From a virus (Duplodnaviria; Heunggongvirae; Uroviricota; Caudoviricetes), in the IMG/VR virus record IMGVR_UViG_2897375277_000002: a stretch of DNA of 47,882 nt. One strand, 5' to 3'. Within the stretch, counting starts at the first letter, position 1; each line of letters starts with the position of its first letter. Of this stretch, positions 4,333 through 47,882 are shown one piece after another. The notes below the pieces were generated by a model. The model made no database searches and was not told where the DNA came from. It saw only the letters and a list, made by a program, of their open reading frames with translations. The translations under genes were made by a program, and so were the position numbers.

Positions 4333-7300
4333 TCAACGAATACTGATGCCGGAAGCGGCTTTTTTGGTCACAATCACCGTACAGTCGGTGATATTACCTG
4401 CCCACTGATTGCCTTTATGGAAAACCTTAAACTCCAGAGTGACGCTTCCCCTACCACTCGGCATATCAATAACCGCACTGTAGCTACCGGGAATGGCCCC
4501 TTTAGTTTCTCTGGATGCGATTAATACACCGTTTTTGCGAACTTCAAAACCATACCCCGTGTATCTTGTACCTCCCGGGTTATTACCACTTCCCGGATCG
4601 CTATACGCTATTCCGTTAAAGATAATGGGCGGAATAATGATTTGACGGTCAAAGTTATGATCATCGCTGATGGTGACTGTAACCGTCCCGTTTGGTGTTT
4701 CCGTATTACCCCACGTACCAGCCTGTTTCGGGAATGATTTGGATACAGCTTTAACGAAGTCACCTCTGACCTGAGTCGCCTCCAGCATGCCCTTAATCGT
4801 ACAGTTTTCATTTACCGTGACATTGTTGAGCGTCCCGGCGTTCGCATTCACACTGCCACTGATATCCGCATTTTTAGCGGTCAGCTTTCCGTCCGGTGTC
4901 AGGGAAAATGCCGGTGGATTACCGCCGCTGGTAATGGTCGGAGCCGTCAGGCGTTTCAGGAACACGTCGTTCATGAATATCTGGTTGCCCTGCGCCACAA
5001 ACATCGGCGTTTCATTCCCGTTTGCCGGGTCAATAAACGCGATACGGTTAGCAGCAACCAGAAACTGGCTCAGTTTGCCTTCCTCCGTGTCCTCCATACT
5101 GAGGCCAATACCCGCGACATAATGTTTGCCGTCTTTGGTCTGCTCAATTTTGACAGCCCACATGGCATTCCATTTATCGTTGGCATCCTTCCACTCTTTC
5201 GAAAACTCATCCAGTCTGCTGGCGTTATCCTCCGTCAGATCGACTTTTTCCAGCAGCTCTTTACCGAGATGGGATTCGGTTATCAGGCCTTTGAAAAAAT
5301 CCAGGTAACCTTCGGCATCATCGCTCGCCCGACCGACGGCCTCCACGAATGCCGATTTGCCAACGGTGTTCACACTGCGGATATAAAAGTAATAATCATG
5401 GCCCGGTTTGATATTGATACTGGCGGCTATCCAGTACAGCCCCGTGCCAAGGTAGCGGGCTGTGGTTTCAACCTGCCTGATATCGGTAATCCGCGTTTCC
5501 GAGAACCAGAACTCAAACTGTACAGTCGGATCATAAACCGCAAGATGCGGCGTGGCGGTTATCTGAAAATAGCCCGGCGTCAGCTCAATCCGCGATGGCG
5601 CTGCCGGTGCGGCAATCCGGAACGATACCGACGCCGGATCGCCCTGCTGCCCCCAGGCATTTACCGCCCGGACTGTCAGACTGTAATTTCCCAGAGCCAG
5701 CTGCCTGAAGCGGTATGTGGTTTCCGTCGTCCGGGCCGTGCTGACCAGCCGCTCACTGCCGTCATCCGCTGCCACGGTCAGGCGAAGCATAAAGCTCACG
5801 CCCTTCACCACCTTCGGCGTATCCCAGCGCGCCAGCACCTGGTATTCCCCGCTGTCTGCGGTGACTTCTGCGGTCAGGTGTTGCACTGCTGGCGGAGTGA
5901 CACCATTCACCGTGCCGCTCTGGTCGCCGTCAAAGTGCGCCCCGTTATCCACGATGGCCTCTTTCTCCGGTACATGCTGCACGGCAGTGATGGCATACGT
6001 GCCGTCGTCGTTCTCACGGATACTCACGCAGCGGAACAGGCGCTGGCGCAACGTCGGCAACTTCAGCCCCCACACGCTGTATTCAGCAACGCCGTCGGGA
6101 ACACGGCTCACTTTCACCTTCACGCCGTCGGTGACGGACTGGACCTCCACGCTGACCGGATTACCCTCACCGTCAACCAGGCTTATCAGCGTGGTGCCGG
6201 AGGATGGCAGCGTGATTTCACGGTCGAGCGTCAGCGTCCGGGTCTGGCTGTTTACCGCCAGCACGCGCCCGCCGGTGCTGATACCGGCATAGTCATCATC
6301 ACAGATTTCAATGACATCGCCCGGCACATGGCGAAGCCCTTCTGCGCCCACGCTGAAGTCCACGGTCTGCGTTTCCAGCAGTTCTGTTTTAATCAGCCAC
6401 AGCCCGGCGCGGTGTGCCTGCCCCCGGCTGGTACAGCCAAAAGCATCCATCTTCGTGACGTTACGACCGTAACGGGCAATGGCCTGCGTATCCTCCACAA
6501 GCTCTGTCGCCGTCTCCCAGCCGTTGTTCGGGTCAATCCAGTTCACCTCAACGGCATTATGGCGGTCTTTCAGGGCGCTGAAGCTGTAGCGGAACGGCGC
6601 GCCATCATCCGGCATCACCACATTACTGCGGTTATAGGTCCACACCTTATCCGATGGCCGGTCCTGCACAAACGTCAGCGTCTGCCCGTTCCATACCGGC
6701 ATACAGCGCATCGCCGAGCAGAAATCACTGAGCACATCCCACGCCTTGCGCTGCGTGGTCAGCCAGGCATTACAGGTAATACGCGGCTCCGTGCCACCAA
6801 AGCCATCCGGCACCGACTGGTCGCAATTCTGGCCGATGACATACAGCGCCCATTTATCCACATCCGCCGCACCAAGACGTTTCCCCATGCCGTAGCGCGG
6901 ATGGGTCAGCATATCCCACAGACACCAGGCCATGTTGTTGCTGTATGCCGGTTTAAACGTTCCGTCCCAGATACCGCTGTATTGCCGCGTCTGCGGGTTA
7001 TAATTCGACGGCACCTGCAGAATACGCCCGCGCAGATGATAATTACGGCTCACCTGCTGGCTGCCGAACTGCTCCGAGTCCACCTGCACGCCGACCAGTG
7101 CCGTGTTCGGGTAGCACTGTTTCACATCGATAATTTCGGTGTATGACGACCAGAGCGTTTTGTTCTGCAGCTGGTCTGTGGTGCTATCCGGCGTCATCCT
7201 GCGCATCCGGATATTAAACGGGCGCGGCGGCAGGTTATCCACCACCACCGAGGCCAGATACTGCGAGGTGGTTTTGCCCTTAATGGTGATGTCTTTTTCC

Positions 7301-33391: not shown

Positions 33392-33605
33392 GCTTCACCT
33401 CCGCAGAGGTCAAACGCTAGATGCAAAGAATTGCAGGTGCATTTCTGCATCTGTGAAGGGAGAAGAGAGTTTGGATTGTATGTGCGCATAAACGTCCCCG
33501 TTTAGCGCAGAAGTCACCGGAGTTGTTCAGGCTCCGGTGACATAATTATGCCGTGTTGATTTCCCAAAATCAAAATCGATAGAATTGCTCCTTCTTAAAA
33601 CACTT

Positions 33606-37912: not shown

Positions 37913-38610
37913 ACACTTGCTCCTTTCAGTCCGAACTTAGCTTTAATTTCTGCGATCTTCGCCAGAGCCTGTGCACGATTTAGAGGTCTACCGCCCATAA
38001 CAGGAAGTTGTTTTACTGGTTCAGGTATCGTCTCACCACGGTTAATTCGCGCTGTCATACAGGTCAGTTCATCGGCAGCCTTGCGCCGTAATTCCGCGTC
38101 AGTCAGCGCATTGGCCCGCATGTTCTGGTACAAGTTGGTAACCAACCAGTAATGCGCGTTCGATTTCCACGGATAAGACTCTGCATCCGGATACAGGCCA
38201 CGCTTCCGGCAATACTCGTAAACCATATCAACCAGCTCGCTGACGTTTGGCAGCCCGGCGTTAACAGATGCTTCTTCCCGGCACCAGGCGACAAACTGCC
38301 CGGGTGATGGCAGGAATGGTCGATTCTGCCGACGGGCTACGCGCATTCCAGCGTTAACCTGTTCCATTGTGGTGATCCCGTTTTCCCGGAAAGCCAGAAC
38401 CCACTGGCGGCGGATTTCGTTCAGTTCATTCTGGTCACGGTTAGCCAGGCTCGCCGGGAAAGTTGCCAGTAACTGGCTGAACACACCGTTGATGATCTGC
38501 GCTACCTGCTGTACCTGTGGCTTTTCGTCGTACTGTTCCGGCATGTTGTTGGCGATCCGGCGCATCTGCTCACAGTCAAAGTTAACCATCTGTGCGGCGA
38601 TGTTTTTCAT
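37909..38610 (-). CDS. P: replication protein P (DnaB helicase loader)
   Basis: 233-aa ORF MKNIAAQMVNFDCEQMRRIANNMPEQYDEKPQ... matching lambda P. Confidence 0.95.
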   Translation of the reverse strand: MKNIAAQMVNFDCEQMRRIANNMPEQYDEKPQVQQVAQIINGVFSQLLATFPASLANRDQNELNEIRRQWVLAFRENGITTMEQVNAGMRVARRQNRPFLPSPGQFVAWCREEASVNAGLPNVSELVDMVYEYCRKRGLYPDAESYPWKSNAHYWLVTNLYQNMRANALTDAELRRKAADELTCMTARINRGETIPEPVKQLPVMGGRPLNRAQALAKIAEIKAKFGLKGASV

Positions 38611-39536
38611 AGCTCCACCCCGTAAATCCAGTCAGTGTTCGTCAGGTCGAGTTTTGGTTTGCCGGCTGTCACGCCAGCCTGTTGCTTGTTTCGGTTGATT
38701 TCGAGCTGGGTCCACTTGTCGCGGAGTTTGGCCGGACTTAGCACGTTACCGGACCAGAAGTTGTCCTGGCATGCCCAGCGGAACAGCACGCACATGTCGC
38801 GGTGGTTACGTCCGTCACGTTCACGCATCAGGCGGATATCGTTAGCCCACCCTGCAAAATTCGGTTTTCTGGCTGATGGCGCGATGGTCTTCACCATGTC
38901 AAACATCCACTCTGCGGCGGTCAGGTCTTCTGCTGTCCCCCACTTGCTGCCGCTCTGAATTGCAGCATCCGGTTTCACCACAGGAAGATCGTTTTCTGAC
39001 TGGTCAGAGGATTCGCCAGAATTCTCTGACGAAAAAGGTTTTATATTGTCTTTTGTTAGTTTGTCTTTTGTGTTTACCTGATTCGGGTAAACGTCTTTAC
39101 CTGATTTGGGTAAACTTTTCTTACCTGATTCAGGTAAATTTACCTCTTTCAGGTAAACTTTATTTTTCTTACCTGATTCGGGTAATGTTGACCATTCACT
39201 GACCACATTATTAATGCCGATATTCCGCCCGCTCTGAATAAAAATCCCACGCTTTACCAGAACACTTTTTGCAGCAGAACACTTGTGCGGCAATATCCCG
39301 GTCAACTCGGAAAGTTGCTCGTTGCTCACCCAATCCAGTTTTTTATTAAAGCCATATGTTTTGCGCATGACAGCCAGAAAGACCAGAAGCTGGTGCTGTG
39401 TTAATCCGGCCAGCATCACAGCTTCCAGCAACTCATTTGCAATGCGCGTATAACCATCATCGAGATCTGCCACGCGCGGCTCCTTTTGTGCCACATCCGG
39501 CACTGGAAAATTGAATATCTCAGCAGTGTTTGCCAT
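38607..39536 (-). CDS. O: replication initiator protein O
   Basis: Start set at ATG 39536 (strong SD GGGAGGAATT) giving MANTAEIFNFPVPDVAQKEPRVADLDDGYTRIANELLEA...; ori iterons lie inside the coding sequence; ORF track extends 30 codons upstream. Confidence 0.9.
   Translation of the reverse strand: MANTAEIFNFPVPDVAQKEPRVADLDDGYTRIANELLEAVMLAGLTQHQLLVFLAVMRKTYGFNKKLDWVSNEQLSELTGILPHKCSAAKSVLVKRGIFIQSGRNIGINNVVSEWSTLPESGKKNKVYLKEVNLPESGKKSLPKSGKDVYPNQVNTKDKLTKDNIKPFSSENSGESSDQSENDLPVVKPDAAIQSGSKWGTAEDLTAAEWMFDMVKTIAPSARKPNFAGWANDIRLMRERDGRNHRDMCVLFRWACQDNFWSGNVLSPAKLRDKWTQLEINRNKQQAGVTAGKPKLDLTNTDWIYGVEL
39074..39185. repeat. replication origin iterons: five copies of an approximately 17-bp palindromic unit (TTACCTGATTCGGGTAA-like)
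   Basis: Copies at about 39074, 39097, 39121, 39140 and 39169, each an internal inverted repeat (TTACC...GGTAA); an AT-rich tract at 39030-39073 follows on the O-downstream side, as in ori-lambda. Confidence 0.85.
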
Positions 39537-39622
39537 AATTCCTCCCGCAATGAGTGTGTTACGATTTGCACCTGAAAGTCGGTTCTGTTCGCGCAGACCG
39601 GCTTTCGCCATTTCCGAACCTG

Positions 39623-39805
39623 TCATATTGCCCCCAGCATGGTGGTGACCATCGCCATCAGTGGACCAGCCAGATCCGGGTCCACACGAAACATCGACAC
39701 AATGCCTTCACTCATCTCCTTCAGTTTCTGGTGGCGTGGTGCGTTGAGAATGACAGCCTGTTTTGCCTCACTGAGTTCCTTTTCCATTTCAGCCAGCCGA
39801 GCCAT
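39623..39805 (-). CDS. hypothetical small protein between cII-position gene and O
   Basis: 60-aa ORF with ATG start; no family recognised. Confidence 0.35.
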   Translation of the reverse strand: MARLAEMEKELSEAKQAVILNAPRHQKLKEMSEGIVSMFRVDPDLAGPLMAMVTTMLGAI

Positions 39806-39835
39806 GAAGCTATCCTGCTCAACCAGGTGGCCGCG

Positions 39836-40168
39836 CTATTCCAGCGGTAGTACCGCCAGAATTGCCGGGGTCAGTTCACGCACGTTATTTCGGTATTTTT
39901 CAGAATCGAATTTGTTATCGAGGAAGCGGAACAGCTTCTGGCGTGCACGGCTGACATCATCAGGAAAATCGATGGTGCCGCCGCCCTGCTCCCGATACTC
40001 ATTCACAATGAGTGCGGCAACAACATCCTGATTATCTGCAGCCGACCAGGCGCGAACGGCATCACGGATTTTTTCGTGGCCTAGCGCCTGTTTTGTTTGA
40101 GAACGATTTATCACCGCAGTCGGGCTAAATCCGCTAGTCTGTTGGTATGTAAGTGGTTGCATAGTCAT
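39836..40168 (-). CDS. hypothetical protein at the cII position (possible CII-like regulator)
   Basis: 110-aa ORF downstream of cro and upstream of O; no similarity to lambda CII that I can recognise. Confidence 0.5.
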   Translation of the reverse strand: MTMQPLTYQQTSGFSPTAVINRSQTKQALGHEKIRDAVRAWSAADNQDVVAALIVNEYREQGGGTIDFPDDVSRARQKLFRFLDNKFDSEKYRNNVRELTPAILAVLPLE

Positions 40169-40192
40169 TGCCTTATCAGTTAACGCCGCAGA

Positions 40193-40420
40193 TTAGGCGG
40201 CAGAATTACTCGCGTTAAACAATGGTGCGAGGTCGGGACGAATATCTGCTGGTTTAATCTTTCCACCAGTGGCTGAGACAATTTTCATTACATAGCGGGC
40301 ATCAATTCCGCCACCGTGTAGCCAACGCCAAACAGTGGGCTGGGCTACACCGCATAGATCTGCCAGTCGTTTTTGACTACCTGTAATACTGATTGCGAGT
40401 TGAATGGTTTGATTTGTCAT
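40193..40420 (-). CDS. cro: Cro-like HTH repressor
   Basis: 75-aa ORF MTNQTIQLAISITGSQKRLADLCGVAQPTVWRWLHGG... (HTH); divergent from cI across an operator-containing spacer. Confidence 0.8.
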   Translation of the reverse strand: MTNQTIQLAISITGSQKRLADLCGVAQPTVWRWLHGGGIDARYVMKIVSATGGKIKPADIRPDLAPLFNASNSAA

Positions 40421-40530
40421 TATTAATTCCCATTGGTATTACAATGAATAAATAATAGCAATGCGTATTAATCATAACAATAGCAAAACGTGTTTTGACC
40501 ATCAATACGCAAGCGTATAAATTAAAACTT
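40421..40530. promoter_or_regulatory. OR region with putative PR (minus strand: -35 TTGTTA at 40475-40480, 17-nt spacer, -10 TATTAT at 40452-40457) and AATAGCAA(T) operator motifs
   Basis: Hexamers and motif copies (40454-40462, 40479-40486) read directly; the same motif recurs in the putative OL. Confidence 0.55.
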
Positions 40531-41223
40531 ATGAAAAAAGAAACTCTTGCTGATCGCTTAAACCTAGCGATGGAACAATCTGGAATGTCTCAAGGCGCTC
40601 TTGCAAAGGCGTCTGGCGTAGCTCAACCCACAATCTGGAGACTGACAAGCGGCAACGCGCGCGGCTCAACAAAAATTGTTGAAATAGCTAATGCATTGGG
40701 TGTTCGAACAGAGTGGCTCTCATCAGGCATAGGCCCGATGAGAAATGACGGTCAACAATTAGGGAAGCCTACTGCCAACCATCCCAAATACTTCAAGATT
40801 GACGTTCTTGATATAGAAGTGAGTGCCGGGCCGGGAGTCATCAACCGTGAGTTTGTAGAAGTTCTACGCTCGGTTGAGTACTCGTTTGACGATGCTCGTC
40901 ACATGTTCGATGGTAGGAAGGCAGAAAATATCCGCATCATTAACGTACGCGGTGACAGCATGTCAGGAACGATTGAACCTGGTGATCTTCTATTCGTTGA
41001 TATCACGGTTAAATCTTTCGACGGTGATGGTATCTATGCGTTTCTGTACGACGACACAGCCCATGTAAAGCGCCTGCAAATGATGAAGGATAAGCTGCTG
41101 GTTATCTCTGATAACAAAAGCTACTCACCGTGGGACCCGATCGAGAAAGATGAGATGAACCGGGTATTTATCTTCGGGAAAGTTATTGGGAGCATGCCGC
41201 AGACGTATAGGAAGCATGGATAG
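40531..41223 (+). CDS. cI: CI-type repressor (N-terminal HTH, C-terminal S24 LexA-like peptidase domain)
   Basis: MKKETLADRLNLAMEQSGMSQGALAKASGVAQPTIWRL... with C-terminal ...GDSMSGTIEPGDLLFVD... (Ser-Lys dyad type). ORF track starts at a TTG at 40495; ATG 40531 preferred, likely leaderless. Confidence 0.85.
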   Translation: MKKETLADRLNLAMEQSGMSQGALAKASGVAQPTIWRLTSGNARGSTKIVEIANALGVRTEWLSSGIGPMRNDGQQLGKPTANHPKYFKIDVLDIEVSAGPGVINREFVEVLRSVEYSFDDARHMFDGRKAENIRIINVRGDSMSGTIEPGDLLFVDITVKSFDGDGIYAFLYDDTAHVKRLQMMKDKLLVISDNKSYSPWDPIEKDEMNRVFIFGKVIGSMPQTYRKHG

Positions 41224-41303
41224 TACCAATTAAAAATTATCAACCGGGCATTGTGCTCATTCAGTAAAACAACTTAATTATTCATTTTAGAATGGAGAAC
41301 TTA

Positions 41304-42365
41304 ATGGATACTTTAAAATATGAGAAATTCTCTGATTTTGATCACAATGACCCATTTTTTGACTCTTTAAAAAAAGATTATAAAGAGTTTCCTCTTTGGT
41401 TAGAAAAAAAAGCCAGAGAAGGAGAATCAGCTTATGTGCTCTATGATGACAAGCATAAAATCGAAGGTTTTATGTATCTAAAAGAAAATGATGATGCAAA
41501 TGACATTAATCCAGCGCTCCCACCAGGACGTCATCTAAAGATAGGAACATTCAAATTTGAATCTAAAGGCACCCTTCGCGGACAACGATTTCTAAAAAAA
41601 GCGTTTGACCATGCATTTTCATCAAAATCTGATGATATTTATGTTACTGTTTTCGACAAACACGTCCATCTAATAAAACTTTTCCAAACGTACGGATTTT
41701 ACATTCATGGTGAAAAAGAAACACATAACGGGAAAGAGTTTGTATATGCGAGGTCTTTGCATGAGCCTTATGGTGATATTTTATTAGATTACCCTCGAAT
41801 AATGACATCAAGGGCCAACAAATATTTACTGGCGATTTATCCCGAATATCACACTAGACTATTCCCTGATTCAAAACTTGTAAATGAATCACCAGATATT
41901 GTCAAAGATATATCCCATGCTAACAGCATTCATAAAATTTACATATGTGGAATGCGTTCTGTGATGGGAATGAAAAGAGGAGATATCATTGTCATCTATA
42001 GAACCGGAGACAAAAAAGGGCCAGCTCGCTATCGTTCTGTAGCCAGTACATTATGTGTAGTTGAGAGCGTAAAAAATATTTCTGAATTTTTAAGCGAAGA
42101 TAGTTTTGTAGACTATTGTATTCGTTTTAGCGTATTTTCTGAAGATGAACTCAGAAAAATCTATAAAGAACGTCGATACCCTTTCATTATAAGATTCACA
42201 TACAATCTGTCTTTGCCAAAGAGACCCAATCGTGCTATTTTAATAGATCATGTGGGGCTAAATGGTTCGCGTGCATTCCGATGGAGTCACTTTAAACTCA
42301 CAAATGAGCAGTTCTTAAAGATCATCGAGTTAGGCAAGATAAATGAAAGTTTTATTATCCATTAA
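41304..42365 (+). CDS. GNAT-like acetyltransferase domain protein with uncharacterised C-terminal domain (rex-position cargo gene 1)
   Basis: ORF 41292..42365; ATG at 41304 has an SD (GGAGAA). Segment LRGQRFLKKAFDHAF...DDIYVTVFDKHVHLIKLFQTYGFYIHGE resembles GNAT motifs A/B; AT-rich; no lambda counterpart. Confidence 0.6.
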   Translation: MDTLKYEKFSDFDHNDPFFDSLKKDYKEFPLWLEKKAREGESAYVLYDDKHKIEGFMYLKENDDANDINPALPPGRHLKIGTFKFESKGTLRGQRFLKKAFDHAFSSKSDDIYVTVFDKHVHLIKLFQTYGFYIHGEKETHNGKEFVYARSLHEPYGDILLDYPRIMTSRANKYLLAIYPEYHTRLFPDSKLVNESPDIVKDISHANSIHKIYICGMRSVMGMKRGDIIVIYRTGDKKGPARYRSVASTLCVVESVKNISEFLSEDSFVDYCIRFSVFSEDELRKIYKERRYPFIIRFTYNLSLPKRPNRAILIDHVGLNGSRAFRWSHFKLTNEQFLKIIELGKINESFIIH

Positions 42366-42720
42366 GCCTGAGTTTGCAGAAAAAATATTGAACGGAACAA
42401 AGCGGTTCGAGTTTCGTAAAGGTATATTCAAAAATCCGCAAATTAGCACCGTTGTTATTTATGCCACGATGCCATTAGGTAAAGTTGTTGGTCAATTCCG
42501 TATTGAATCAATACTAAGTGACGAACCGGAATCTCTTTGGAAAAAGACGGAAAAACACGCAGGTATTTCTAAGCAATTTTATGACTCATATTATTCAGGT
42601 AGAGAAAAGGCCTACGCAATAAAAATTGGTGAAGTGGAAAGATATAAAGAACCAATTCCTATCTCTGCTCTAGGTAGTAATATTAAGCCACCACAATCAT
42701 ATCTTTACCTACCTGCGTAA
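42343..42720 (+). CDS. ASCH-domain (PUA-like) protein (rex-position cargo gene 2)
   Basis: 125-aa ORF MKVLLSIKPEFAEKILNGTKRFEFRKG... with the ASCH N-terminal signature; overlaps gene 1 by 23 nt. Confidence 0.65.
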   Translation: MKVLLSIKPEFAEKILNGTKRFEFRKGIFKNPQISTVVIYATMPLGKVVGQFRIESILSDEPESLWKKTEKHAGISKQFYDSYYSGREKAYAIKIGEVERYKEPIPISALGSNIKPPQSYLYLPA

Positions 42721-42724
42721 GAAT

Positions 42725-42751
42725 CCCGGCCACCGTGCCGGGTTTTCTTTT
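42725..42751 (+). terminator. intrinsic terminator ending the cI / cargo operon
   Basis: CCCGGC-CACCGT-GCCGGG hairpin followed by TTTTCTTTT immediately after the ASCH gene stop. Confidence 0.7.
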
Positions 42752-42837
42752 GTCCCCTCATCACACAAACCGTTCGAAAAACCACCACATCCTCCCTTCA
42801 GTTATCGCTATGCGATGCAAGTCACAAAATTAATTCT

Positions 42838-42918
42838 TTTTGCTATCAAACAGTTAATATCAAAACACATCAATCAATAGCAATAAGTATTGATACAGCC
42901 AATAGCAATAGCTATTAT
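42838..42918 (+). promoter_or_regulatory. putative OL/PL: -35 TTGATA (42890-42895), 17-nt spacer, -10 TATTAT (42913-42918), with CAATAGCAAT operator copies at 42875-42884 and 42900-42909
   Basis: Consensus-like hexamers with 17-nt spacing on the + strand pointing toward gam/bet/exo; the operator motif is shared with OR. Confidence 0.55.
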
Positions 42919-42991
42919 CACCATGTCGCAACAACACAACGATACGGCAATCACCTGATTCACCGTTGCGATGACCGCTTAGATCCGCAGC

Positions 42992-43402
42992 TTGAATTTC
43001 AGCAGGCTCCGGGGAGTGCGAGGGGTGAAGCGGACGCGTGAACGTCGGTGTGACCAGCTGAAATCAACTCAACACCTCATACCTCAGTCGCTTCAACGAG
43101 GCGGCTTAGTTATGACAACCGGCGGCCATCCACCGCCTGAATACGCGCAGAAGTCTCTATATGTTCAGCAGCCCAGCTTACGGGCAGGAGTTTTTATGGT
43201 TCATCAACATTACGGAACGCAGACCGTTAATCGCGGTGCGGTCATGCCAGGAATGCTGGTCAAACACAAAGATGGTACCTGGACTGCATCAGCTAATTTA
43301 CGCGGACGGCTTTATCTGCATCGCGGCATCGAGCGCACTTATACCCGTGATTTGCTCGTGGAAGTTTTTCTCGACGGACGCGGTAACGGCCTGAATCGCT
43401 AA
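42992..43402 (+). CDS. hypothetical early-left protein with Arg-rich N-terminus (possible N/Nun-like antiterminator; start uncertain)
   Basis: ORF begins at TTG 42992; alternative in-frame GTG at 43016/43025 (…VKRTRERR…) or ATG at 43112. First ORF after the putative PL; no confident family match. Confidence 0.35.
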
Positions 43403-43477
43403 TCCCCTTTCCTGTTTTCCTAATCAGCCTGGCATTTCGCGGGCGATATTTTCACAGCCATTTTCAGGAGTTCAGCC

Positions 43478-43774
43478 ATGAACGCTTATTACATTCAGGA
43501 TCGTCTTGAGGCTCAGAGCTGGGCGCGTCACTACCAGCAGATCGCCCGTGAAGAGAAAGAGGCAGAACTGGCAGACGACATGGAAAAAGGCCTGCCCCAG
43601 CACCTGTTTGAATCGCTATGCATCGATCATTTGCAACGCCACGGGGCCAGCAAAAAAGCCATTACCCGTGCGTTTGATGACGATGTTGGGTTTCAGGAGC
43701 GCATGGCAGAACACATCCGGTACATGGTTGAAACCATTGCTCACCACCAGGTTGATATTGATTCAGAGGTATAA
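43478..43774 (+). CDS. gam: Gam (RecBCD inhibitor), short form
   Basis: 98-aa [42 protein letters not shown]... matching lambda GamS; the in-frame upstream region has no start before a stop. Confidence 0.9.
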
Positions 43775-43779
43775 AACGG

Positions 43780-44565
43780 ATGAGTACAGCACTCGCAACG
43801 CTGGCAGGGAAGCTGGCTGAACGTGTCGGCATGGATTCTGTCGACCCACAGGAACTGATCACCACTCTTCGCCAGACGGCATTTAAAGGTGATGCCAGCG
43901 ATGCGCAGTTCATCGCATTGCTGATCGTCGCCAACCAGTACGGCCTTAATCCGTGGACGAAAGAAATTTACGCCTTCCCTGATAAGCAGAACGGCATTGT
44001 TCCGGTGGTGGGCGTTGATGGCTGGTCCCGCATCATCAATGAAAACCAGCAGTTTGATGGCATGGACTTTGAGCAGGACAATGAATCCTGTACATGCCGG
44101 ATTTACCGCAAGGACCGTAATCATCCGATCTGCGTTACCGAATGGATGGATGAATGCCGCCGCGAACCATTCAAAACCCGCGAAGGCAGAGAAATCACGG
44201 GGCCGTGGCAGTCGCATCCCAAACGGATGTTACGGCATAAAGCCATGATTCAGTGTGCCCGTCTGGCCTTCGGATTTGCTGGTATCTATGACAAGGATGA
44301 AGCCGAGCGCATTGTCGAAAATACTGCATACACTGCAGAACGTCAGCCAGAACGCGACATCACTCCGGTTAACGATGAAACCATGCAGGAGATTAACACT
44401 CTGCTGATCGCCCTGGATAAAACATGGGATGACGACTTATTGCCGCTCTGTTCCCAGATATTTCGCCGCGACATTCGCGCATCGTCAGAACTGACACAGG
44501 CCGAAGCAGTGAAAGCTCTTGGATTCCTGAAACAGAAAGCCACTGAGCAGAAGGTGGCAGCATGA
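43780..44565 (+). CDS. bet: Bet single-strand annealing protein (RecT family)
   Basis: 261-aa [40 protein letters not shown]... matching lambda Bet. Confidence 0.95.
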
Positions 44566-45242
44566 TACCGGACATTATCCTGCAGCGTACCGGGATCGAC
44601 GTGAGAGCTGTCGAACAGGGGGATGATGCATGGCACAAATTACGGCTCGGCGTCATCACCGCTTCAGAAGTTCACAACGTGATAGCAAAGCCCCGCTCAG
44701 GAAAGAAGTGGCCTGACATGAAAATGTCCTACTTCCACACCCTGCTGGCTGAGGTTTGCACCGGTGTGGCTCCGGAAGTTAATGCTAAGGCGCTGGCCTG
44801 GGGAAAACAGTACGAGAACGACGCCAGAACCCTGTTTGAATTCACTTCCGGCGTGAATGTTACTGAATCCCCGATCATCTATCGCGACGAAAGTATGCGC
44901 ACCGCCTGCTCTCCCGATGGTTTATGCAGTGACGGCAACGGCCTTGAACTGAAATGCCCGTTTACCTCCCGGGATTTCATGAAGTTCCGGCTCGGTGGTT
45001 TCGAGGCCATAAAATCGGCTTACATGGCCCAGGTGCAGTACAGCATGTGGGTGACGCGAAAAGATGCCTGGTACTTTGCCAACTATGACCCGCGCATGAA
45101 GCGTGAAGGCCTGCATTATGTCGTGATTGAGCGGAATGAAAAGTACATGGCGAGTTTTGACGAGATGGTGCCGGAGTTCATCGAAAAAATGGACGAGGCA
45201 CTGGCTGAAATTGGTTTTGTATTTGGGGAGCAATGGCGATGA
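44562..45242 (+). CDS. exo: lambda-type 5'-3' exonuclease Exo
   Basis: 226-aa [40 protein letters not shown]... matching lambda Exo. Confidence 0.95.
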
Positions 45243-45421
45243 CGCATCCTCACGATAATATCCGGGTAGGCGCGATCACTTTCGTCTACTCCGTTACAAA
45301 GCGAGGCTGGGTATTTCCCGGCCTTTCTGTTATCAGAAATCCACTGAAAGCACAGCGGCTGGCTGAGAAGATAAATAATAAACGGGAGGCGGTATGCACA
45401 AAGCATCTCCTGTTGAGTTAA
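45233..45421 (+). CDS. hypothetical protein (lambda orf60a-like)
   Basis: 62-aa [36 protein letters not shown]...; position downstream of exo as in lambda. Confidence 0.6.
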
Positions 45422-45579
45422 GAACGAGTATTGAGATGGCACATAGCCTTGCTCAAATTGGAGTCAGGTTTGTGCCAATACCAGTAGAAACAGACGAAGA
45501 ATTTCATACGTTAGCCACATCCCTTTCACAAAAGCTGGAAATGATGGTGGCGAAAGCAGAAGCAGATGAGAGAGACTAG
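45394..45579 (+). CDS. hypothetical protein (lambda orf63-like)
   Basis: 61-aa ORF with ATG; syntenic with lambda small ea-region ORFs. Confidence 0.55.
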   Translation: MHKASPVELRTSIEMAHSLAQIGVRFVPIPVETDEEFHTLATSLSQKLEMMVAKAEADERD

Positions 45580-45595
45580 GTATGACAACCACTGA

Positions 45596-45877
45596 ATGCA
45601 TTTTTCTGGCAGCGGGCTTCATATTCTGTGTGTTTATGCTTGCCGACATGGGGCTTGTTCAGTGACACCTCAGCAAGAAAACGCCCTTCGCAGCATTGCC
45701 CGTCAGGCTAATTCTGAAATCAAAAAAGCCAGACAGCAGTTTCCGGATAAAAACGTCGATGACATTTGCCGTAGCGTACTAAAGAAGCACCACGAAACGG
45801 TAACGCTAATGGGATTCACACCGACTCATTTAAGCCTGGCGATCGGCATGTTGAATGGCATCTTTAAGGAACGGTGA
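45596..45877 (+). CDS. hypothetical protein (lambda orf61-like; start uncertain)
   Basis: 93-aa ORF; the lambda-like portion begins near the in-frame GTG at 45662 (VTPQQENALRSIARQ...). Confidence 0.5.
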   Translation: MHFSGSGLHILCVYACRHGACSVTPQQENALRSIARQANSEIKKARQQFPDKNVDDICRSVLKKHHETVTLMGFTPTHLSLAIGMLNGIFKER

Positions 45878-45975
45878 ACATGAAAAGCAAAATCATCAGG
45901 GAGCTACAGGCTCCTTTTTTATTATTCGCATTTACCCTCAAGCGTATTAATCAACAATTCAGGGATTAATGAAAG

Positions 45976-46194
45976 ATGACAGACATCATTGATTCAGCAT
46001 CAGAAATCGAAGAATTACAGCGCAATACAGCAATAAAAATGCGTCGTCTGAACTACCAGACTGTATCCGCAACTCATTGTTGTGAGTGTGGCGATCCGAT
46101 AGATGAGCGAAGACGCCTGGCTGTTCAGGGTTGTCGGACTTGTGCAAGTTGCCAGGAGGAGATCGAACTTAAGAACAAACAATGGGGACTGTGA
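45976..46194 (+). CDS. TraR/DksA-family C4 zinc-finger protein
   Basis: 72-aa ORF with CxxC...CxxCxxC spacing (HCCECGDPIDERRRLAVQGCRTCASCQ). Confidence 0.65.
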   Translation: MTDIIDSASEIEELQRNTAIKMRRLNYQTVSATHCCECGDPIDERRRLAVQGCRTCASCQEEIELKNKQWGL

Positions 46195-46241
46195 TGGCCT
46201 CAAAGCAGCAAATTTCAACATCGTCCAACTGAGGTGTAAAA

Positions 46242-46520
46242 ATGTTCAGAATCATTTTTCCTAACACCTGGTACGTCGACCACCACGGCACTCCCTGCAA
46301 AATCCTGCGTTCTACCCACAACAAAGTTCACTACATCCGAAAAGGCAGAACATGTATCGCCAGCATGTTCCGCTTTAATCATGACTTTGAACCTGTGAAT
46401 AAAGCTGATGCAGATCGGATAGCAGAAGAGATCGAAACGGCAGAACACATTAAGAAGTTACGTGACATGCGTTCAAAAAGCAGAGGTAACCATGGAATCA
46501 TACAGCCTCACACTCGATGA
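46242..46520 (+). CDS. hypothetical protein
   Basis: 92-aa ORF with ATG; no family recognised; overlaps xis start by about 29 nt. Confidence 0.45.
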   Translation: MFRIIFPNTWYVDHHGTPCKILRSTHNKVHYIRKGRTCIASMFRFNHDFEPVNKADADRIAEEIETAEHIKKLRDMRSKSRGNHGIIQPHTR

Positions 46521-46863
46521 GGCCTGTCAGTTTCTTAAGATATCCAGACCAACCGCCACCAACTGGATACGAACAGGCCGCCTACAGGCAACACGCAAAG
46601 ATCCAACCAAGCCAAAATCTCCTTACCTCACAACACGGCAAGCCTGCATTGCGGCGCTTCAGTCTCCGCTGCATACTGTCCAGGTGAGCGCGGGTGATGG
46701 CATAACAGAGGAAAGAAAATGTCACTCTTCCGCAGAAATGAAATATGGTATGCCTCGTATTCGCTCCCGGGCGGGAAACGAATTAAGGAATCTCTTGGCA
46801 CAAAGGACAAGCGGCAAGCTCAGGAGTTGCACGACAAGCGAAAAGCAGAACTCTGGCGAGTAG
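46492..46863 (+). CDS. xis: excisionase-like protein (HTH)
   Basis: ATG with SD (AGGT); N-terminus [31 protein letters not shown] is an excisionase-type HTH; directly upstream of and overlapping int. Confidence 0.7.
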
Positions 46864-47882
46864 AAAAGCTAGGGGATTTACCTGATGTCACTTTTGAAGA
46901 GGCCTGCCTAAGATGGCTTGAGGAAAAAGCTGATAAAAAATCTCTCGATTCAGATAAAAGCCGGATTGAGTTCTGGCTTGAACATTTTGAGGGTATAAGG
47001 CTTAAAGATATCTCGGAGGCAAAGATTTACTCTGCTGTAAGCAGAATGCATAACAGAAAGACGAAAGAAATATGGAAACAGAAAGTTCAGGCCGCCATCA
47101 GGAAAGGTAAAGAACCGCCTGTTTATGAACCAAAGCCAGTATCAACTCAGACAAAGGCAAAGCATCTTGCCATGATAAAGGCCATTCTCCGTGCTGCAGA
47201 ACGCGACTGGAAGTGGCTGGAAAAAGCGCCTGTCATCAAGATACCAGCGGTCAGAAACAAGCGAGTCAGATGGCTGGAAAAGGAGGAAGCAAAACGCCTT
47301 ATTGATGAGTGCCCCGAACCACTGAAATCTGTCGTCAAGTTTGCGCTGGCAACTGGTCTGAGAAAGTCGAACATCATAAATCTGGAATGGCAACAAATCG
47401 ACATGCAGCGACGAGTTGCCTGGGTGAATCCAGAAGAGAGCAAATCAAACCGCGCCATTGGTGTGGCGCTGAACGATACCGCCTGTAAAGTGTTGCGTGA
47501 TCAAATAGGCAAGCATCACAAATGGGTGTTTGTACATACCAAGGCGGCTAAGCGAGCAGATGGAACATCAACGCCTGCGGTCAGGAAGATGCGCATCGAC
47601 AGCAAAACATCATGGCTATCAGCTTGTCGTCGTGCAGGAATTGAAGATTTCCGTTTCCATGACCTCAGACACACCTGGGCAAGCTGGCTGATTCAGTCAG
47701 GCGTCCCATTATCAGTGCTTCAGGAAATGGGCGGATGGGAGTCCATAGAAATGGTTCGTAGGTATGCTCACCTTGCGCCTAATCATTTGACAGAGCATGC
47801 GAGGAAAATAGACGACATTTTTGGTGATAATGTCCCAAATATGTCCCACTCTGGAATTATGGAGGATATAAAGAAGGCGTAA
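46719..47882 (+). CDS. int: tyrosine integrase (P22/DLP12 IntD-type)
   Basis: 387-aa [37 protein letters not shown]... with catalytic-region motifs ([10 protein letters not shown]...GGW...VRRYAHL); ends with TAA at the window edge. Confidence 0.95.

Follow-up and report, generated by a model that had tools for sequence, protein, structure and literature searches.

How is the early left operon of a lambdoid prophage expressed when no N gene can be seen between PL and gam? The question is raised by a stretch of 47,882 nucleotides (nt), the whole of which we call the window, from the IMG/VR virus record IMGVR_UViG_2897375277_000002. The window is a lambdoid prophage with its left operon on the + strand, and the original prediction, made from its sequence alone, described an early-left region (42752-43477) with no recognisable N, cIII or kil, containing a single open reading frame (ORF; 42992-43402) that might encode a divergent N/Nun-type antiterminator with unrecognised nut or put sites, unless the phage had lost its early antitermination module. 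The description that our analysis supports well is of an N-less lambdoid PL operon that has a mosaic, untranslated leader of 270 nt and opens with a KilR-type kil. The leader includes a structured RNA, module B, whose position, interchangeability, structure and lack of alternatives underlie the reading that we prefer, at slightly less than an even chance: that the prophage is an N-less Bievrevirus-type lambdoid in which module B may be an antiterminator RNA that acts in cis as put does but belongs to a new class by sequence.

The putative PL, with its -10 at 42913-42918, proved to be well placed. It is a sigma-70-like promoter (42890..42918, + strand; -35 TTGATA at 42890-95, 17-nt spacer, -10 TATTAT at 42913-18) that matches the consensus at 10 of 12 positions and is the top promoter match in 38000-47882. 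Overlapping it are two OL operator copies (42875..42917), CAATAGCAATAAGTATTG at 42875-92 and CAATAGCAATAGCTATTA at 42900-17, both of the form YAATA-N8-TATTR, a motif present three times in the 47.9-kb window against 0.12 times expected; the third copy, at 40453-70, lies in the PR/PRM region, and it is because these operators are common to PL and OR that we regard PL as confirmed. Transcription should start at about 42925, and a mosaic joint with other immunity types falls at 42926. The distance from the -10 to the start of gam at 43478 is indeed about 560 bp, with neither an N nor a cIII gene between PL and gam.

Could the ORF that follows be a divergent N? It has, as first reported, no ATG before 43112, and it reads ...VKRTRERR..., so that translation from an in-frame GTG would supply an arginine-rich RNA-binding motif. 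KRTRERR does resemble such a motif, presumably in the manner of the TRRRERR of lambda N, and GGGGAG stands 7 nt upstream of the GTG at 43025. The variation of the frame among 79 related loci (50 distinct sequences) points the other way. The 204 nt of 42992-43195 hold 25 polymorphic sites distributed 10/6/9 over the codon positions: 11 of the changes are synonymous, 14 non-synonymous and one nonsense (CAG to TAG at 43085). In close relatives the Arg-rich frame is also disturbed by a 5-nt insertion and by 1-nt indels, and the stop or the insertion breaks it in 10 of the 79 loci. Because it has no codon-position bias, and because stops and frameshifts occur in relatives, the Arg-rich stretch is, judged by its sequence, non-coding. 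Its peptide matched no Pfam, PHROG or NCBIfam family, a tblastn search of 50,697 phage records returned nothing resembling it beyond this phage lineage, and its bases fall in helices of module B. On the codon analysis and homology searches we rejected an N/Nun-type protein here, a reading to which we now attach next to no probability and which for practical purposes is already refuted.

The ORF nonetheless holds one real gene, and that gene specifies a known protein unrelated to N: the "single ORF" is non-coding leader joined to kil (43196..43402, + strand), whose 68 codons are its last. The kil ATG is at 43196, with a Shine-Dalgarno (SD) sequence, AGGAG (43186-90), 6 nt before it. The product, a homologue of the KilR/phi80-type FtsZ inhibitors, matches PHROG 294 over residues 1-67 (E 1.7e-37) and the NCBIfam model PRK11354 (KilR) with E 3.6e-17 and 62 bits; since the cutoff of 92 bits is not reached, it is by sequence a relative rather than an equivalog of PRK11354. 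It is 36% identical to KilR of Rac and 40% identical to Kil of phi80, and we take it to belong to the KilR/phi80 family (PHROG 294), not to be the short Kil peptide of lambda. Its variation among the same 79 loci has the codon-position pattern of a gene, in that third positions account for 16 of the 18 polymorphic sites and 18 changes are synonymous to 2 non-synonymous, and the start is kept across genera although the sequence upstream diverges. PGAP/RefSeq annotation of related prophages calls exactly this 207-nt coding sequence, as Kil, and calls only these 68 residues, so the statement that no kil was recognisable was mistaken; the 136-140-residue "Kil" calls in some records are over-extended. 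These comparisons mark kil as a real, translated gene of the early-left operon, adjoining the recombination genes, with a predicted FtsZ-inhibitor activity. The gene for Gam, the RecBCD inhibitor (43478..43774, + strand; Pfam Gam E 9e-65, and so annotated in relatives), follows 76 nt 3' of kil, and bet and exo come next. The region as such is already in the databases, annotated as Kil.

Upstream of kil, the PL leader (42926-43195) comprises about 270 nt that are untranslated and that comparison with relatives divides into modules A, B and C. Module B (~42970..43068, + strand) begins about 45 nt after the presumed +1 and has two helix domains over 84 nt. Its helices are 42976-78/43018-20, 42985-87/43010-12 with 42989-94/43003-08, 43021-22/43058-59 with 43024-26/43053-55 and 43030-31/43048-49 with 43033-35/43044-46. 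In an RNAalifold analysis of 20 sequences, representing about four types, 99.5% of alignment cells at these positions are paired, against 25-40% when the partners are slid, and four pairs are changed on both sides, against 0-1 when slid; the covariation is 0.171, compared with 0.095 in shuffles, and none of 500 shuffles reached that value.

Many IMG/VR prophage contigs share a PL-leader scaffold, consisting of a left flank that ends in CCATCGAAACGAAACATCGACAGCTGAGCGAAGTTAGCCAGCGGCGAAGTGGAG (AGCCAGCGGCGAAGTGGAG), then an exchangeable segment, then TTACCAGCAGCTCTTTGCGAGGGGCTGACGG. Between identical flanks the segment is an HK639-type putL in 33 loci and module B in four others (L171, L236, L243, L314); in this scaffold the exchange of the two is exact to the base. 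It is found after at least eight different PL/immunity (operator) types: after phi80-type PL there may be nutL and N (phi80 itself), put (L316) or module B (L235, L236, L314), and after HK639-type PL either put (HK639, L246) or module B (L233, L242). The first genes beyond it vary (an HNH endonuclease, a 141-residue ORF, a Cys-rich 62-residue ORF, an HK639_45 homologue that in L314 follows module B directly, and kil). Downstream, 8 module-B and 54 put loci have a common layout, in which genes occupying 0.4-1.9 kb are followed by a strong intrinsic terminator of canonical form (e.g. ACCCGCTCCGGCGGGTTTTTT) and then by the conserved cassette that makes up module C. In the 80 loci of the window type, module B runs directly into the cassette, neither a gene nor a terminator intervening. 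Relatives have a segment from the put/nut slot to the cassette that holds at least one gene and tL1, and its absence here accounts for the compactness of the region. One subtype of module-B loci (L231, L232, L235, L237, L238, L241, L242) carries, some 60-100 nt after module B, the sequence GAGGAGAAACTCAAATGAAGCACTAA, a mini-ORF of three codons (MKH) served by a strong SD; beyond it there are about 350 nt without an obvious gene.

The put RNAs of HK022, HK639 and their relatives act in cis, without protein, by binding RNA polymerase (PMC9378689). Those RNAs lie just 3' of PL, measure about 70 nt and form two stem-loops, and module B agrees with them in all of this, lying a few tens of nt after PL in N-less phages and forming two stem-loop domains within about 85 nt; it resembles HK639 and CobraSix further in having a left-operon copy only, together with a YdaS/YdaT-type right operon. 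It differs from put in sequence, covariance-model score, helices and conserved bases; read-through by put is blocked by mutations in the beta' zinc-binding domain, and the function of module B is predicted. We looked for put directly, training a covariance model (R1) on eight HK022-type put RNAs, with the consensus GAACGGC ... GUCGG ... GGCGGGYUCAGGANGARCGGCAAU. The model recovered the putR elements of UPF_BP1 and phiEt88, on which it had not been trained, at E ~1e-12 to 1e-13. With filters off, its best match in the window had E ~1 and none lay in the leader, nor did it find anything in 12 module-B loci. An HK022-type put in the window was rejected accordingly. A cmscan of 40000-44000 against Rfam, with E up to 10, likewise gave no match in 42750-43480.

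Signals of the nut type fared no better. No boxA (CGCTCTTTA-like, with at most one mismatch) is present in the leader or 3' of cro, the nearest look-alike being CGCTTAGA at 42976, a poor match; where lambda-type N systems have a small, basic, Arg-rich first gene after PL together with boxA and boxB, the first real gene of this operon is kil. No N appears in the full annotation of phage 4A7, where the one antiterminator listed is Q-like. A search elsewhere in the window for an antisense partner of the leader found none, and neither was a YdaT-type operator found in the PL leader. Of the suggestion that an unrecognised nut or put site lies in the region, what survives is the structured module B in the putL slot; a boxA and an HK022-type put do not. 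Module B could be imagined as a nut-type site that recruits a factor in trans, either an unrecognised phage protein or host Nus factors as in rrn, given that phi80 has its nutL in the same leader region and that N proteins, being small and disordered, are hard to detect by homology. With no boxA-like match in or near the leader and no N in 4A7, we think this improbable; moreover, since the first genes downstream differ among prophages, no conserved partner gene travels with module B.

That leaves module B as a candidate for an RNA-only device, and its most obvious target is an intrinsic terminator inside the PL operon, AGGGAGCTACAGGCTCCTT with a T-run (45898..45927, + strand), whose 45898-45916 portion sits between the exo-side genes and a TraR-like gene, xis and int, and which is kept in phage 4A7. 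If module B antiterminates in the way we infer, PL would fire at about 42925 and its transcripts, untranslated over the first 270 nt, would run through kil and then gam, bet and exo, in a phage with a YdaS/YdaT-type right operon. The module B RNA would act in cis on the transcribing RNA polymerase, as the HK022 and HK639 put do, enabling it to read through the 45898-45916 terminator into the TraR-like gene, xis and int with no N protein, and would also let it pass Rho-dependent sites. Module C carries the ribosome-binding site of the next gene and probably controls its translation.

Several results weigh against this reading. No strong intrinsic terminator is predicted from PR to Q or from PL to exo, and in the window type none lies from module B through kil, gam, bet and exo; these four genes thus need no antitermination, and with terminators missing from both intervals the phage might manage without any. 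Only about four sequence types contribute independently to the covariation, and the structure tested on these sequences had itself been obtained from them. Folding energy is unhelpful: module B alone gives z of about -0.2 to -0.95 and the whole leader, at z -0.38, folds no better than shuffles. There is no sequence match of module B to put or to any Rfam family, and a positional swap establishes that DNA segments are interchangeable, not that their functions are identical.

The main rival builds on the missing terminators. It holds that there is no early antitermination at all, the operon being N-independent like lambda nin, and that the leader only restrains and tunes the toxic kil, by means of Rho-dependent attenuation in its C-rich 5' part, sequestration of the SD and an upstream ORF (uORF); module B would then have a role in regulation or stability that has nothing to do with reading through terminators. 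Over its first 65 nt the leader is indeed C-rich and G-poor (GC skew -0.23 to -0.30), pairing is possible between the SD of kil and 43150-59, and no putR is present in HK639 and CobraSix, whose right operons are of the same type. There is precedent in kilR of Rac, whose long 5' untranslated region yields an Hfq-bound small RNA (sRNA), KilS (PMC8175672), and which is reported to be controlled through Rho/NusG (PMC5793797). What this explanation leaves unaccounted for is the precise exchange of module B and putL in a shared scaffold, as well as the expression of genes beyond the strong tL1-type terminator that precedes the cassette in eight module-B prophages; a conserved canonical terminator does, besides, lie inside the PL operon. 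We consider it rather unlikely.

Is the leader instead a scar, functionless and left by deletion or recombination when N and tL1 were lost? Modules B and C abut exactly where relatives hold genes and a terminator, and the module boundaries coincide with mosaic joints. A blastn search with 42880-43200 nevertheless found matches in 2,231 of 5,426 complete E. coli genomes, covering at least 80% of the query in 2,042, and some 2,000 genomes, of several immunity types, have leaders that are 96-100% identical. Compensatory base changes are seen in both modules, indels are rare, and the 3' 90 nt of the leader have 4 polymorphic sites compared with 16 at the 68 third-codon positions of kil. A scar therefore seems very improbable, and this reading and that of a nut-type site are both less likely than either antitermination by module B or its complete absence. 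The same layout is present in isolated phages, so the antitermination module has not simply been lost by decay, and "unusually compact" overstates the case for an arrangement so common. Among isolated phages module B is confined to 16 Bievrevirus-like coliphages; over the region examined the window is 99% identical to four of the isolated Bievrevirus phages, 4A7, 4C10, 1W and 3W, and with 4A7, 4C10 and Perceval in hand module B is directly testable.

Module C is the post-tL1 leader cassette (43077..43195, + strand). Delimited by cassette comparison and covariation, it comprises CATACCT and a covarying hairpin (43086-94/43098-43106), continues with a near-invariant 26-mer, ATGACAACCGGCGGCCATCCACCGCC (43112-37), that includes a second hairpin (43121-25/43133-37) and a possible uORF start (MTTGGHPPP), and, after a variable spacer, reaches a conserved block, GCGCAGAAGTCT (43145-56); its 3' end is one of three alternatives that carry the SD, in the window AGGAG at 43186-90. 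Most 26-mer loci were gathered with that very pattern, which bears on its near-invariance, and phi80 has one further change. For the first hairpin, 39 distinct variants give 98% of cells paired (98.7% for both hairpins) against 36-55% when slid; six of its nine pairs change on both sides, and there are 84 double-change cells compared with 26.7±3.6 in shuffles, a count that none of 500 shuffles reached. Of the leader sub-segments folded, only 43084-43145 has notable stability (z -2.1).

More than 30 small genes, unrelated to one another, are found behind the cassette, which usually lies directly 3' of a strong intrinsic terminator. Phages that carry it are phi80, in which it comes straight after N-tL1A, HK639, in which the gp44 terminator is upstream of it, and HK225, CobraSix, S9-5, ENT1 and KO-TP1, and it follows a tL1-type terminator, as in phi80, HK639 and HK225, in more than 100 prophage contigs. 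We discarded the possibility that it substitutes for N, because it is found with N (phi80), with put (HK639) or with neither. Nor is it a sigma-70 promoter, inspection revealing no conserved -10 or -35. A purely peptide-coding role for the 26-mer is unlikely; its sole internal substitution among the loci compared, C/T at position 8, changes Thr to Ile. The conserved block stands 4, 5, 7, 9, 18 or 20 nt from the 26-mer, and the frame between them is not fixed. The cassette probably controls the translation of the first gene beyond tL1, and a short uORF may take part in this. The short frame MTTGGHPPP... usually stops at a TAA in the conserved block; in the window type this stop is lost and the frame is in phase with kil. 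The fused frame, from 43112 to 43198, makes a 96-residue Kil isoform formally possible, and the PPP motif of MTTGGHPPP would be an EF-P-dependent stall site.

A literature search for the cassette sequence found no paper (King et al. 2011 lay outside its scope), and neither module B nor the cassette has an Rfam family. Two existing annotations overlap the cassette or its surroundings. In phi80 (L228, NC_021190) the "tL1B rho-dependent terminator" (2643-2852) falls inside an unannotated 69-residue ORF (MSDLEFGLKIY...) after the cassette, and in HK639 (L097) the "terminator" at 4688-4716 coincides with the conserved second hairpin of the cassette; both look questionable.

To our knowledge, put is essentially the one sequence family for which processive antitermination by RNA alone has so far been described, and it has become a structural model for how a nascent RNA reprograms RNA polymerase. 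Module B might be a third class of lambdoid early antitermination device, unrelated to put and swappable with putL or with the nutL and N of phi80, in some 40% of complete E. coli genomes, with the cassette as an undescribed, strongly covarying RNA that governs the first delayed-early left gene of many lambdoids, phi80 and HK639 among them; taken whole, this is a tentative proposal that we put below an even chance. If true, a second, unrelated RNA that changes places with put in nature would offer an independent solution for comparison, and would explain how very common N-less E. coli lambdoid prophages express their delayed-early left genes, a point that is open for other N-less lambdoids (PMC12315714).

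Module A (42926..42958, + strand), the CA-rich, variable 5' segment of the leader, is replaced by unrelated sequence in O157-type relatives. Within it, CAACAACACAAC (42929-40) is a perfect 12-nt complement of the R1 seed of the sRNA GcvB, GUUGUGUUGUUG, or 15 bp if G-U pairs are counted; a 12-nt match was reached by 4 of 1,000 dinucleotide shuffles of the leader, a frequency uncorrected for GcvB having been picked post hoc. By analogy with AgvB, CAACAACACAAC could be an sRNA target or sponge site. An AgvB-like anti-sRNA proper was rejected, AgvB being located 3' of PR' and not at PL. A second element of module A, ACGGCAAT (42945-52), agrees, possibly by chance, with the GGCAAU core that is invariant in put stem II, and has a counterpart, ACGGGCAAT, in the apical hairpin of the L171-type module B (8530-8633 of L171, - strand).

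How the window relates to better-known operons can be stated briefly. It shares with lambda the logic of the operon (PL first, kil, gam, bet and exo next, xis and int after them, and an internal terminator), and differs in having no N, ral, sieB, ea10 or cIII. The annotated early-left order of phi80 is PL, nutL (boxA, boxB), N, tL1A, tL1B, kil (NC_021190). The likeness to phi80 extends to the start of the PL leader, in those module-B prophages that have a phi80-type PL, to the Kil family (40% identity) and to the post-tL1 cassette after N-tL1A, which is about 90% identical to the HK225 query copy; unlike phi80, the window lacks N, boxA/boxB and the tL1A hairpin and has kil directly after the cassette. 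With Rac kilR it has in common a toxin of the KilR family (36% identity), a long untranslated leader, immunity of the RacR/YdaS/YdaT type and the lack of an N gene. The two leaders have unrelated sequences, and that of Rac ends in an intrinsic terminator producing KilS, annotated in the kilR 5' untranslated region of K-12 (L104, 4406-4503, - strand; NC_000913), whereas the window leader has no such terminator. In other genera (Citrobacter and Kluyvera; L009, L012-L015) kil again comes first behind a PL-like promoter, and some 90 nt before it the leader of these loci holds another long hairpin, CTTCGCGGTGGTG...CACCACCAGCGAAG, which encloses an inner one; a stem that sequesters the SD is also present. 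Long regulatory leaders are seemingly general among KilR-type genes.

The cI-like repressor gene (40495-41223) and a YdaS-type cro (40193-40420, - strand) are followed, just past cro and after a gap of only 24 nt, by a YdaT-type cII analogue. That analogue (within 39626-40168, - strand) has an in-frame stop at codon 111 (39836-39838), and is intact, with 180 residues, in phage 4A7; because it is interrupted, the copy of the prophage in the window may be defective in establishing lysogeny. Two moron genes lie 3' of cI, at the position of rexAB (41292-42720): a 357-residue ORF (41292-42365; PHROG 6345), acetyltransferase-like in its N-terminal part, and, overlapping it, a gene with an ASCH domain (42343-42720). 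The cI-moron operon is closed by an intrinsic terminator, CCCGGCCACCGTGCCGGG with a T-run (42725..42752, + strand; identified by terminator scan), and the terminator at 42725-42742 is kept in relatives that carry other morons. Other cargo in the same post-cI slot includes a SIR2-family protein in an O157:H7 prophage and a transmembrane protein in Perceval, and 41292-42720 looks like a variable slot for defence or exclusion morons. Finally, the nin region contains a perfect palindrome, TTGATT-N6-AATCAA (33556-33573), with which promoter-like matches on both strands coincide. This is reported as the site for YdaT of CP-933P (PMC9986795), and the palindrome may mark a YdaT-controlled promoter analogous to PaQ of lambda.

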